NCBI RefSeq assembly: GCF_030384885.1
Contig: NZ_CP128613.1
Origin: Escherichia coli
GTDB taxonomy: Bacteria > Pseudomonadota > Gammaproteobacteria > Enterobacterales > Enterobacteriaceae
Length of the DNA stretch: 64,000 nt
Strand: one strand, 5' to 3'
Position 1 is the first letter of the stretch, and each line of letters starts with the position of its first letter. Shown in pieces: positions 54,763 to 59,071 of this stretch. The notes beneath the pieces were generated by a model. The model was not told where the DNA came from. It made no database searches and was given only the letters and a program-made list of their open reading frames with translations. Position numbers and translations under genes: made by a program.

Positions 54763-54838
54763 TGGCTCCTCTGACTGGACTCGAACCAGTGACATACGGA
54801 TTAACAGTCCGCCGTTCTACCGACTGAACTACAGAGGA
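54763..54838 (-). tRNA. asnV: tRNA-Asn (anticodon GUU)
   Basis: 76-nt exact match to E. coli tRNA-Asn (TCCTCTGTAGTTCAGTCGGTAGAACGGCGGACTGTTAATCCGTATGTCACTGGTTCGAGTCCAGTCAGAGGAGCCA) on - strand. Confidence 0.97.
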
Positions 54839-55093
54839 ATCGTGTGAACGGGGCGCATATTAATGGCAGTGCATGGTGATGTCAAAGGGTGAAATGCATT
54901 TTTTTGTTTGTTTGCTGTCAATTTCAACAAAGTGGTGAGCTTTCAATCTTATTGGGTAATGAACCATCGTGGTGCATACCCTCCTTTTATAGGGCAGGGG
55001 AACGCGACAGCTGATTAAAGGAGCCAATGACGAATCTATCATAATCTCTTATTTGACAGTTGCTTAGCTTGTACATCAACGCCAAAATAAAAC

Positions 55094-55109
55094 TGGCAAG
55101 CATCTTGCA
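55094..55109 (+). promoter_or_regulatory. Sigma-54 (-24/-12) promoter of nac
   Basis: tGGcaagcatctTGCa about 55 nt upstream of the nac start; possible NtrC half-site cgtggtgcata near 54965. Confidence 0.7.
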
Positions 55110-55164
55110 CTCTGGTTGTAAGTAATGGCGGCACTTGGGCCGATTCTTAAACACCGGAGGCAAC

Positions 55165-56082
55165 ATGAACTTCAGACGCTTGAAATACTTCGTAAAAATT
55201 GTAGATATTGGTAGCCTGACCCAGGCTGCTGAAGTATTGCATATCGCACAACCAGCGCTCAGTCAGCAGGTTGCCACACTGGAAGGTGAGTTAAATCAAC
55301 AACTTTTGATTCGCACAAAACGGGGCGTTACGCCAACTGACGCCGGAAAAATTCTCTATACCCATGCGCGGGCCATTTTACGTCAGTGTGAGCAGGCCCA
55401 ACTGGCGGTGCATAACGTTGGTCAGGCATTATCGGGGCAAGTCTCGATTGGCTTTGCGCCAGGAACCGCTGCGTCATCCATCACCATGCCTTTATTGCAG
55501 GCGGTTCGCGCTGAATTCCCGGAAATTGTTATTTATCTCCATGAAAATAGCGGTGCTGTGCTCAACGAAAAACTGATAAGCCACCAACTCGATATGGCAG
55601 TGATTTATGAGCATTCTCCTGTGGCTGGTGTTTCCAGTCAGGCTTTGCTGAAAGAAGATCTTTTCCTGGTAGGAACGCAAGATTGTCCGGGGCAAAGCGT
55701 TGATGTTAATGCTATAGCACAAATGAACCTCTTTCTCCCCAGCGATTACAGTGCCGTTAGACTTCGTGTTGATGAGGCTTTTTCCCTACGGCGGCTTACA
55801 GCAAAAGTTATTGGGGAAATTGAGTCTATTGCCACGCTTACCGCAGCAATTGCCAGCGGCATGGGCGTTGCAGTCTTACCCGAATCGGCCGCGCGTTCGT
55901 TATGTGGCGCAGTAAACGGATGGATGTCACGCATTACCACACCTTCAATGAGTCTCTCTTTGTCATTAAATTTACCCGCCAGAGCGAACTTATCACCACA
56001 GGCGCAAGCAGTGAAAGAGTTGTTAATGTCAGTGATGAGTTCTCCAGTGATGGAAAAAAGGCAGTGGCAATTGGTGAGCTAA
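55165..56082 (+). CDS. nac: Nitrogen assimilation control protein Nac (LysR family), 305 aa
   Basis: MNFRRLKYFVKIVDIGSLTQAAEVLHIAQPALSQQVATLE N-terminus; start set to M11 of the ORF. Confidence 0.92.
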   Translation: MNFRRLKYFVKIVDIGSLTQAAEVLHIAQPALSQQVATLEGELNQQLLIRTKRGVTPTDAGKILYTHARAILRQCEQAQLAVHNVGQALSGQVSIGFAPGTAASSITMPLLQAVRAEFPEIVIYLHENSGAVLNEKLISHQLDMAVIYEHSPVAGVSSQALLKEDLFLVGTQDCPGQSVDVNAIAQMNLFLPSDYSAVRLRVDEAFSLRRLTAKVIGEIESIATLTAAIASGMGVAVLPESAARSLCGAVNGWMSRITTPSMSLSLSLNLPARANLSPQAQAVKELLMSVMSSPVMEKRQWQLVS

Positions 56083-56183
56083 GCGTTATATCGGGATGGA
56101 ATAAGATGCGGGTTTTTATTATTTGTTATGCCGGGCATTAAACTTTAACAATAACGTGATATCTGAACTGCCCGGAGTTTACC

Positions 56184-57164: not shown

Positions 57165-57171
57165 AGAAATT

Positions 57172-57247
57172 TGGCTCCTCTGACTGGACTCGAACCAGTG
57201 ACATACGGATTAACAGTCCGCCGTTCTACCGACTGAACTACAGAGGA
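57172..57247 (-). tRNA. asnU: tRNA-Asn (anticodon GUU)
   Basis: Identical 76-nt tRNA-Asn sequence on - strand. Confidence 0.97.
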
Positions 57248-57254
57248 ATCGCTG

Positions 57255-58895
57255 TTGAGGCACATCTTAACGGCGAAAAATTTTTTGTCAAACCCGATTT
57301 TTAAATTCCTCAACTGTTTGCCGTTTCTATCAACAGTTTGTTGCATTTGCAGACAATTTGTCGGCAAAAATCTTTGCAGCTTTGCTGATTCTCCCTCATC
57401 ATTTGAAATGTGGTTTCACTTTTTGCAATTAAGGTCGGCTTTGAATATCTCCTCTGCTTTACGCCAGGTTGTTCACGGCACTCGCTGGCACGCCAAACGC
57501 AAGAGTTACAAAGTGTTGTTCTGGCGCGAGATAACCCCGCTTGCTGTTCCTATCTTCATGGAGAACGCCTGTGTCCTGTTGATGGGTGTCCTGAGCACTT
57601 TTCTGGTCAGCTGGCTGGGAAAAGATGCGATGGCCGGCGTGGGATTGGCGGACAGCTTCAATATGGTCATTATGGCTTTTTTTGCAGCTATCGATCTTGG
57701 TACTACTGTCGTTGTGGCATTTAGTCTCGGTAAGCGGGATCGACGACGAGCGAGGGTGGCGACGCGACAGTCATTGGTGATCATGACGTTGTTTGCCGTA
57801 CTGTTGGCAACGCTTATTCATCATTTTGGCGAACAAATTATTGATTTCGTCGCGGGTGATGCCACGACAGAAGTTAAAGCACTGGCGTTGACTTATCTGG
57901 AGCTGACGGTACTCAGTTATCCAGCAGCTGCCATCACTTTGATTGGTAGCGGGGCACTTCGTGGTGCAGGGAATACGAAAATACCGCTACTGATTAACGG
58001 TAGCCTGAATATTCTTAATATTATTATTAGCGGCATATTGATTTACGGCCTTTTCTCCTGGCCGGGACTGGGATTTGTCGGGGCTGGGTTGGGGTTAACC
58101 ATTTCTCGTTATATTGGCGCAGTGGCAATTTTGTGGGTGCTGGCGATTGGTTTTAATCCTGCGCTAAGGATTTCGTTAAAGAGCTATTTTAAACCGCTGA
58201 ATTTTAGCATTATCTGGGAAGTCATGGGGATTGGTATTCCAGCGAGTGTCGAATCAGTGTTATTTACCAGTGGTCGGTTATTAACCCAAATGTTCGTTGC
58301 CGGGATGGGGACCAGTGTTATTGCCGGGAATTTTATCGCGTTTTCAATTGCGGCTCTTATCAACTTACCCGGAAGTGCGCTCGGCTCTGCTTCTACGATC
58401 ATTACAGGCCGAAGGTTGGGGGTAGGGCAGATAGCGCAAGCAGAGATTCAGTTGCGGCATGTGTTCTGGCTGTCCACTCTTGGATTAACGGCCATCGCCT
58501 GGCTAACGGCTCCCTTTGCTGGGGTTATGGCATCGTTTTACACCCAGGATCCACAGGTTAAACATGTCGTTGTGATTCTGATTTGGCTAAATGCTTTATT
58601 TATGCCTATTTGGTCTGCCTCATGGGTGCTACCCGCTGGATTTAAGGGTGCTCGCGATGCCCGTTACGCCATGTGGGTTTCTATGTTGAGCATGTGGGGT
58701 TGCCGGGTTGTAGTCGGTTATGTGCTGGGAATCATGCTTGGCTGGGGTGTGGTTGGTGTCTGGATGGGAATGTTTGCCGACTGGGCTGTGCGGGCCGTGC
58801 TGTTTTACTGGCGCATGGTTACTGGACGTTGGCTGTGGAAATACCCTAGATCTGAGCCGCAAAAGTGTGAAAAAAAGCCAGTTGTGTTGAAATAA
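57255..58895 (+). CDS. yeeO: MATE-family efflux transporter YeeO (true start probably downstream of 57255)
   Basis: 12-TM MATE-like sequence; ORF as drawn begins 8 nt from the tRNA-Asn 5' end, so the first ~50-100 codons are doubtful. Confidence 0.8.
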   Translation: MRHILTAKNFLSNPIFKFLNCLPFLSTVCCICRQFVGKNLCSFADSPSSFEMWFHFLQLRSALNISSALRQVVHGTRWHAKRKSYKVLFWREITPLAVPIFMENACVLLMGVLSTFLVSWLGKDAMAGVGLADSFNMVIMAFFAAIDLGTTVVVAFSLGKRDRRRARVATRQSLVIMTLFAVLLATLIHHFGEQIIDFVAGDATTEVKALALTYLELTVLSYPAAAITLIGSGALRGAGNTKIPLLINGSLNILNIIISGILIYGLFSWPGLGFVGAGLGLTISRYIGAVAILWVLAIGFNPALRISLKSYFKPLNFSIIWEVMGIGIPASVESVLFTSGRLLTQMFVAGMGTSVIAGNFIAFSIAALINLPGSALGSASTIITGRRLGVGQIAQAEIQLRHVFWLSTLGLTAIAWLTAPFAGVMASFYTQDPQVKHVVVILIWLNALFMPIWSASWVLPAGFKGARDARYAMWVSMLSMWGCRVVVGYVLGIMLGWGVVGVWMGMFADWAVRAVLFYWRMVTGRWLWKYPRSEPQKCEKKPVVLK

Positions 58896-58995
58896 ACGAC
58901 AAAGTGCAGATTATTTCAGCAAACGATTTCAAATTTAAAAAACAGGCTTTGACATTGTGGATGGGCGTCGCTAATATTCGCCTCGTTCTCACGAT

Positions 58996-59071
58996 TCCTC
59001 TGTAGTTCAGTCGGTAGAACGGCGGACTGTTAATCCGTATGTCACTGGTTCGAGTCCAGTCAGAGGAGCCA
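58996..59071 (+). tRNA. asnW: tRNA-Asn (anticodon GUU)
   Basis: Identical 76-nt tRNA-Asn sequence on + strand ending CCA at 59069-59071. Confidence 0.97.

Follow-up and report, generated by a model that had tools for sequence, protein, structure and literature searches.

Three copies of one tRNA gene lie within 4309 bp of a 64-kb stretch of Escherichia coli DNA (the window), two on one strand and one on the other. Such an arrangement raises the question of whether the copies are occupied by genomic islands or stand empty, and whether they serve as substrates for inversion and deletion of the genes between them.

The asn tRNA cluster and its layout

ARAGORN finds exactly three tRNA-Asn genes with the anticodon GTT in the window: asnV (54763–54838, minus strand), asnU (57172–57247, minus strand) and asnW (58996–59071, plus strand). 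They share one sequence of 76 nt with the CCA end encoded, form a cloverleaf with the GTT anticodon, and each scores 72.6 bits against the Rfam tRNA model (RF00005; gathering score 29). Alignment and exact matching confirm the identity, positions and strands given in a preliminary description of this DNA, and all three genes are present in the RefSeq annotation (asnV in NZ_CP027579.1). Exact identity runs a few bases past the tRNA, to 84 bp for asnV and asnU, 86 bp for asnV and asnW and 85 bp for asnU and asnW, and outside these repeats the flanks diverge. The 25-nt 3′ end of the tRNA occurs three times in the window, versus 0.00 times expected from shuffles, and the identical 76-mer is found in 11 of 11 retrieved E. 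coli loci containing a tRNA-Asn gene. An Rfam search around the tRNAs (E ≤ 0.1) gives no other structured RNA above threshold; a match to manA-II reaches 30 bits, where the gathering score is 100, and is considered a chance one. tRNA-Asn(GUU) is the sole asparagine tRNA of E. coli, and asnV, asnU and asnW are three of its four identical genes and ordinary core genes.

Both the window and the RefSeq annotation of NZ_CP027579.1 (E. coli 2013C-4282) show the order ldtA, asnV(−), nac, cbl, asnU(−), yeeO, asnW(+), yeeN. The direct repeats asnV and asnU enclose the genes of two LysR-type regulators, nac (nitrogen assimilation; 55165–56082, plus strand) and cbl (56184–57134, plus strand), both in the RefSeq annotation and the open reading frame list. 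The inverted repeats asnU and asnW enclose yeeO, annotated in RefSeq as a MATE-family efflux transporter (57408–58895, plus strand). The span from asnV to asnW equals the published length of the asnW-asnU-asnV region (PMC8209727), and the window shares its tRNA sequence, gene order and span with the K-12 asnT/asnU/asnV/asnW locus. Against K-12 derivatives the full 6.6 kb is collinear at 96.6% identity, with about 3% of bases diverged and no structural difference. Of 5426 complete E. coli genomes, 4858 (~90%) are collinear with the 6.6-kb locus. Across all 5426, the asnV junction is intact in its standard form in 4664, that of asnU in 5177 and that of asnW (counted as yeeO-asnW-spacer) in 4976. 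The locus very probably represents the E. coli asn tRNA cluster in its ancestral form, free of islands.

Each tRNA is a separate single-gene transcription unit, as modeled from a consensus scan for promoters and direct folding of terminator hairpins, with a predicted sigma-70-type promoter and a downstream hairpin. In the alignment, a promoter-like site stands at the matching position upstream of every copy. The asnV site (54857–54885, minus strand) reads TTGACA-17-TAATAT with 10 of 12 consensus matches and is followed by a GC-rich GCGCCCC. The asnU site (TTGACA-16-TAAGAT; 57264–57291, minus strand) and the asnW site (TTGACA-17-TAATAT; 58949–58977, plus strand) are both located within the invertible yeeO segment. 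Predicted terminator hairpins with a T-run follow asnV (54729–54756, minus strand) and asnU (57136–57164, minus strand; z-score −4.9), and a hairpin with no clear T-run, presumably a terminator or processing signal, follows asnW (59079–59108, plus strand; −14.8 kcal/mol, z-score −3.8). Fold energies range from −10.6 kcal/mol for asnV to −19.5 kcal/mol for asnU. The asnV value compares with −17.3 kcal/mol in the RefSeq record; the hairpin is weakened by a variant at 54738, a private change at a stem base kept in 7 other loci. This is one of four positions at which the window differs from the RefSeq record, another being 61868 in the amn stop codon. A terminator scan called none of the three hairpins, which were recovered by direct folding.

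Unoccupied island attachment sites

The asn genes are 100% identical and are used by pks and the HPI (PMC8209727), in line with the preliminary description, which treated tRNA-Asn genes as island integration sites. The 3′ ends of the tRNA-Asn genes serve as attachment sites for the P4-type integrases of the HPI, the pks island and ICEs. The window contains three copies of the attachment sequence used by these islands (HPI at asnT; pks at asnW, asnV or asnU; ICEEc1/ICEKp1); unlike in the islands, no integrase, direct repeat or cargo accompanies them there.

No integrase is annotated in RefSeq anywhere in the window, and the 3′ neighbors of the tRNAs are ldtA, cbl and yeeN, whose stop codons are 55 bp from asnV, 37 bp from asnU and 450 bp from asnW, respectively. 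A search for duplicates of the tRNA 3′ end (25-nt and 16-nt pieces, up to 3 mismatches) matches only the three genes themselves in the window. When att-like sequences are sought with relaxed criteria over 2 kb on the 3′ side of asnW, the best match has 9 mismatches in 20 positions. Strain-variable cargo of atypical composition is absent 3′ of asnV and asnU. Occupied asn sites in other genomes have an integrase immediately adjoining the tRNA 3′ end or, in O121 RM8352, a 16-nt remnant of the tRNA 3′ end, which serves as the positive control for an att remnant. Thus, the asnV, asnU and asnW attachment sites are all unoccupied in the window. The earlier claim that no island adjoins any 3′ end holds: downstream of every copy the search for integrases and att scars found none, and the locus is collinear with K-12.

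The composition changes at the asnW end. A low-GC tract (~36% GC, 59000–60500) starts directly 3′ of asnW, with the AT-rich asnW-yeeN spacer of 450 bp (59072–59521, no strand assigned; GC 0.36) as its beginning; neither the annotation nor the att scan shows an integrase or att repeats in this spacer. Over the 1.5 kb that follow asnW the GC is 0.34–0.38, yet this stretch is conserved in 4976 of the 5426 genomes. The tract may be an ancient, fully decayed insertion. asnT, the fourth of the identical copies, is located 17.9 kb beyond the window end and carries integrase remnants and a small island. Integrase genes or remnants are present at asnT in most E. coli, including the window strain, whose asnT integrase is decayed to a pair of fragments and is the only one nearby. 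The preliminary description did not mention asnT beyond the window, the low-GC tract or the inverted pair formed by asnV and asnW.

Rearrangements across the species

Earlier work has established the tRNA identity, the use of the genes by islands and the inversion of the whole interval (PMC8209727, PMC6458436). The 4309-bp asn region occurs in two orientations (Auvray 2021, PMC8209727), and inversion between asnW and asnV arises in UTI89 cultures, as validated by PCR (Russell 2019, PMC6458436). The repeats and the class of mechanism discussed here are the same as in this published inversion; unlike the published inverted form, the interval in the window lies in the common orientation, like that of K-12. 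In the literature searched we found no report of an inversion of yeeO only or of a nac-cbl deletion, the two products that the preliminary description had proposed.

Both exist. Using synthetic junction sequences as queries against the 5426 complete genomes, we found yeeO inverted between asnU and asnW in 32 genomes, where the junction of cbl, asn and the inverted yeeO 3′ end is intact, and we confirmed the inversion in LD27-1 and CP53 at the level of both genes and single bases. Four junction haplotypes are distinguishable among the 32 genomes, which come from diverse hosts, and this suggests repeated events. Deletion of nac-cbl between asnV and asnU is found through the ldtA-asn-yeeO junction in 35 genomes and is confirmed in 2016C-3878; the 15 of these 35 genomes that were listed all have an equal score, and one event in one lineage may account for all 35. 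Inversion of the whole 4309 bp between asnV and asnW is the commonest variant (265 genomes, counted from the yeeN-side junction, which is the informative one). The junction of ldtA, asn and inverted yeeO has a match in SE15 only; in most inverted strains an island parts ldtA from the tRNA.

The breakpoints map within the 84–86 bp identical repeats, and the control elements are exchanged as predicted for reciprocal products. In the yeeO-inverted genomes the asnU promoter stands upstream of the tRNA at the asnW position and the asnW promoter is on the tRNA at the asnU position, so that in LD27-1 and CP53 the promoter/terminator pairs are P_W+T_U and P_U+T_W; 2016C-3878 has P_U+T_V. In the inverted genomes the region upstream of yeeO stays with the gene, and no tRNA is left without a predicted promoter and terminator.

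Proposed mechanism of the rearrangements and its alternatives

The 84–86 bp of exact identity make the asn copies substrates for reciprocal recombination, most simply by homologous exchange in which a RecA-dependent step is presumed. Recombination of the inverted pairs gives inversions, with asnU and asnW flipping yeeO and asnV and asnW flipping the whole 4309 bp, and recombination of the direct pair asnV and asnU results in the loss of nac-cbl. The crossover falls inside the tRNA body, so that the exchanged segments take the promoters with them and leave the terminators behind. Every product is thus expected to keep an intact tRNA with a promoter and a terminator, and the rearrangements are therefore inferred to be nearly neutral. 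They persist as low-frequency polymorphisms in E. coli.

Since the identical repeats hide the crossover point, exchange by RecA and by an integrase leave the same sequence. The P4-type tyrosine integrases of islands (Int of HPI, pks or ICE) might have made the inversions and deletions through the att core at the tRNA 3′ ends: a unique association of the whole-interval inversion with pks insertion at asnW has been reported (PMC8209727), an integrase adjoins one asn copy in KL53 and 2016C-3878, and asnT supplies integrase genes or their remnants in most strains. However, LD27-1 and CP53 have a clean yeeO inversion with no integrase between cobU and shiA/amn, and the only integrase near the window is the fragmented one. 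The repeats also exceed the minimum for RecA-dependent exchange, which in E. coli is roughly 25–30 bp, and exchange between two attB sites without arm sites is not known to be normal for P4-type integrases. We consider an integrase origin unlikely. The rearranged versions might instead be assembly errors at the repeat, as would be illustrated by the AH21A060 assembly, which is interrupted here and in which a linear piece of 5969 bp bears a plasmid label. The repeats of 76–86 bp are, however, shorter than ordinary reads, many laboratories contributed the 32, 35 and 265 complete genomes in which the variants appear, the junctions are base-perfect reciprocal products, and PCR confirmed the asnW/asnV inversion in UTI89 (PMC6458436); an artifact is hardly credible.

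The cluster itself could be what remains of repeated island insertions in the distant past, with nac-cbl, yeeO and yeeN as domesticated cargo between duplicated tRNAs. Every segment is indeed bounded by full tRNA copies, and the spacer and yeeN are low in GC relative to the ~0.48 of their neighbors. Against this, the copies are complete genes with differing promoters and terminators rather than att-type partial repeats, nac-cbl and yeeO have an ordinary GC of 0.46–0.50, the window contains neither integrase nor att remnant, and the arrangement is that of ~90% of complete genomes, which makes such an origin very improbable. A further reading, likewise improbable, is that the cluster is a maintained, dynamically shuffling module, in which orientation or promoter/terminator pairing alters expression and is under selection. 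If so, the candidates for the altered trait would be the dosage of yeeO or of the asn tRNAs, read-through into neighboring genes or a promoter feeding an island integrase, and selection could act, e.g., by making islands at certain asn sites more stable or by blocking them. Unlike for programmed switches (fimS, hin/gin, the shufflon), no dedicated recombinase is annotated at or near the invertible segment, or elsewhere in the window, and inversion does not connect or disconnect a promoter and a gene.

The cluster is similar to the rrn operons, which rearrange by homologous recombination, in that identical multicopy RNA genes provide portable homology and the RNA genes stay intact after inversion or deletion. 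However, unlike in the rrn operons, the repeats are ~85 bp rather than ~5 kb, and the segments are 1.7–4.3 kb rather than large chromosomal arcs. The unoccupied state of this well-studied integration hotspot is textbook knowledge and carries little weight for the window itself, which is useful as a clean reference for empty asnV, asnU and asnW in scoring the presence of HPI, pks and ICEs elsewhere. The tallies across the species (265, 32 and 35 genomes) and the reciprocal promoter/terminator swaps are a small concrete addition. They mean that identical tRNA genes of ~85 bp suffice for recurrent structural polymorphism, and that some natural E. coli lineages are without both the Nac and Cbl regulators.

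The asn locus in its unoccupied state

The 64-kb window holds exactly three tRNA genes, all predicted by ARAGORN as tRNA-Asn(GTT): 54763-54838 on the minus strand, 57172-57247 on the minus strand and 58996-59071 on the plus strand. These are the well-known asnV, asnU and asnW, respectively, and each scores 72.6 bits with the Rfam tRNA model. Alignment with 100 bp of flank reveals no difference among the 76-nt genes, in agreement with the preliminary description, which had placed three identical copies at the same positions and strands. The identity continues for just 4-6 bases upstream and 4-5 bases downstream, resulting in exact repeats of 84-86 bp. 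The 25-nt 3′ end of the tRNA occurs three times in the window, with zero occurrences expected from shuffled sequences. The annotated gene order in RefSeq is cobU-cobS-cobT-ldtA-asnV(-)-nac-cbl-asnU(-)-yeeO-asnW(+)-yeeN-amn-shiA, preceded upstream by colanic-acid, O-antigen and his genes.

A strong promoter-like site is located at the matching position upstream of each copy, with 10 of 12 consensus matches in every case (TTGACA-17-TAATAT for asnV and asnW, TTGACA-16-TAAGAT for asnU), and is followed by a GC-rich stretch in the alignment. The hairpins predicted downstream have folding energies of -10.6 (asnV), -19.5 (asnU) and -14.8 (asnW) kcal/mol; with the RefSeq sequence the asnV hairpin reaches -17.3. 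We suggest, from the consensus matches and folds, that the three genes are transcribed as independent single-gene units. The promoter and terminator sequences differ from copy to copy, and the copies are not att-type partial duplications.

The annotation of the entire window contains no integrase, and no extra copy of the tRNA 3′ end was found there with 2-3 mismatches allowed; over the 2 kb 3′ of asnW, the best match to it has 9 mismatches in 20 positions. The 3′ ends of asnV, asnU and asnW are separated from the stop codons of ldtA, cbl and yeeN by 55, 37 and 450 bp. The proposed lack of an island at any 3′ end is borne out, with neither integrase nor att duplication beside any copy. In occupied sites, used as controls, an integrase lies directly 3′ of the tRNA (2016C-3878, CKJ_1000_3.1, KL53, FHI_NMBU_03), or a 16-nt remnant of the tRNA 3′ end beside cbl precedes an RHS/integrase island (O121 RM8352). 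The match of O121 RM8352 to the window (comparison locus L009, 11435-11488) stops 16 nt into the asnU 3′ end, adjoining cbl, and a TPR protein gene, an RHS element and an integrase-domain gene come after it; the remnant has the appearance of a distal att repeat belonging to an island at asnU.

Of the 5426 complete E. coli genomes, 4858 share the whole 6.6-kb locus (53700-60300) in collinear form, K-12 derivatives among them. The asn locus of the window is ordinary core-genome architecture in the unoccupied state. The tract immediately 3′ of asnW (1.5 kb, 59000-60500, taking in the asnW-yeeN spacer and yeeN) is low in GC, 0.34-0.38 versus about 0.48 nearby, and might represent a very old insertion that has decayed completely. 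Despite this low GC, the yeeO-asnW-spacer junction is kept in about 92% of the genomes.

Local haplotype and the asnT copy

Region 53700-60300 gives a 100% match to E. coli 2013C-4282 (NZ_CP027579.1), and the whole window corresponds to 422857-486856 of this record with four base differences. At 54738 the window has T versus G, which breaks a conserved G-C pair of the asnV terminator stem kept in all seven other asnV terminators examined; the change may reflect either a private variant or an error in the sequence. T versus G at 61868 turns codon 56 of amn (60580-62034, minus strand; AMP nucleosidase) into an in-frame stop, leaving a longest ORF of only 382 aa in a gene intact in the RefSeq annotation. 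The differences at 20522 (A versus T) and 27993 (A versus G) are by coordinates in wcaM and the O-antigen polymerase gene wzy. Identity of at least 99% to 53700-60300 is reached in only 2 of 5427 matching records, the others showing 95-99%, yet several unrelated strains reach 99.2% over just the ldtA end. Such a pattern points to a local haplotype that may be mosaic and recombinant. Between tmaR and cobU (50566-51200) we also observed an EutP/PduV-family pseudogene fragment and a 119-aa hypothetical ORF at the position where O121 RM8352 and 2016C-3878 carry pocR, a cobalamin riboswitch and pdu genes; it looks like the remnant of a lost pdu/cob region.

The fourth copy, asnT, identical in sequence, lies 17.9 kb past the window end, on the minus strand in window orientation. 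Its 3′ end is followed by two integrase fragments and a small island with genes for a LysR regulator, cysteine hydrolase, HypE, HypF, HAD hydrolase and MFS transporter; asnT, the fragments and the island lie within locus L003, 9964-17963, equal to NZ_CP027579.1 496820-504819, 10-18 kb past the window. This island occupies the place where the HPI sits in other strains. In FHI_NMBU_03 (locus L007, NZ_CP019455.1) junction searches placed tRNA-Asn solely at asnT, with an intact HPI integrase and ybt genes, and the ldtA-to-asnW region seems to be absent altogether.

Rearranged junctions across the species

Synthetic 876-nt junctions (400 bp, tRNA, 400 bp), one per predicted product, were searched in the 5426 complete genomes, and a genome was counted only if the junction was intact in one piece. 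The standard junctions, involving no recombination, are present in 4664 (ldtA-asnV-nac), 5177 (cbl-asnU-yeeO) and 4976 (yeeO-asnW-spacer) genomes. The inverted pair asnU/asnW and the direct pair asnV/asnU had been put forward as substrates for inversion of yeeO and deletion of nac-cbl, and both products exist, the former in 32/5426 and the latter in 35/5426 genomes. Inversion of the whole 4309-bp interval between asnV and asnW (nac upstream-asn-yeeN spacer) is found in 265/5426, Nissle 1917 and UM146 included. The 32 genomes with inverted yeeO, from pigs, poultry, cattle, humans, frogs and water, represent four junction haplotypes with 97.8, 97.1, 96.6 and 96.3% identity to the window. KL53 has both the whole-interval and the yeeO inversion.

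The complex ldtA-asn-inverted yeeO junction occurs in 1/5426 genomes, SE15 (locus L006, NC_013654.1 1969813-1982688), with a partial yeeO duplication and the order ldtA-asn-yeeO(inverted)-asn-cbl-nac(inverted)-partial yeeO copy-asn-yeeN; this locus has two copies of the asnW promoter and lacks that of asnV. Separately, "plasmid unnamed2" of AH21A060 (locus L012, NZ_CP196293.1, 5969 bp, linear) is a chromosomal cobU-cobS-cobT-ldtA-asn-nac-cbl-asn-yeeO fragment truncated within yeeO at an assembly gap; the asn repeat cluster is evidently where the assembly broke.

Reciprocal exchange within the tRNA genes

LD27-1 and CP53 align to the window with a change of strand inside 57167-57251 and 58992-59076, which are the repeats. 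The window combines each promoter (P) with its own terminator (T), that is P_V+T_V, P_U+T_U and P_W+T_W. The yeeO-inverted LD27-1 and CP53 have P_W+T_U and P_U+T_W, the deletion genome 2016C-3878 has P_U+T_V, and KL53 has P_V+T_W, P_W+T_U and P_U followed by an island. These combinations are precisely those that a reciprocal exchange inside the tRNA body would yield. The asn repeats recombine in nature, at the repeats themselves and reciprocally.

Homologous recombination in E. coli needs about 25-30 bp of identity, and the 84-86 bp repeats exceed that. We suggest that the exchange would be RecA-dependent homologous recombination. The main rival is that P4-type integrases of islands catalyse the exchange at the att core instead, against which stand the repeat length and the fact that no integrase was seen between cobU and shiA/amn in LD27-1 and CP53. 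In favour of this rival, the whole-interval inversion has been reported as linked to pks acquisition (PMC8209727), and integrases could still operate, because crossovers in identical repeats are traceless.

The asn cluster and its main rearrangement, the whole-interval inversion, are already known. Auvray et al. 2021 (PMC8209727) describe the asn tRNA genes as 100% identical, with pks inserted at asnW, asnV or asnU and the HPI at asnT, and Russell et al. (PMC6458436) validated the asnW/asnV inversion by PCR and considered that it may be common and dynamic. Inversion of yeeO alone and deletion of nac-cbl were not found in the literature searched; they are minor extensions of the same recombination principle. 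Since each product retains complete tRNA genes with promoter and terminator, and yeeO retains its own upstream region, the rearrangements should cost little.
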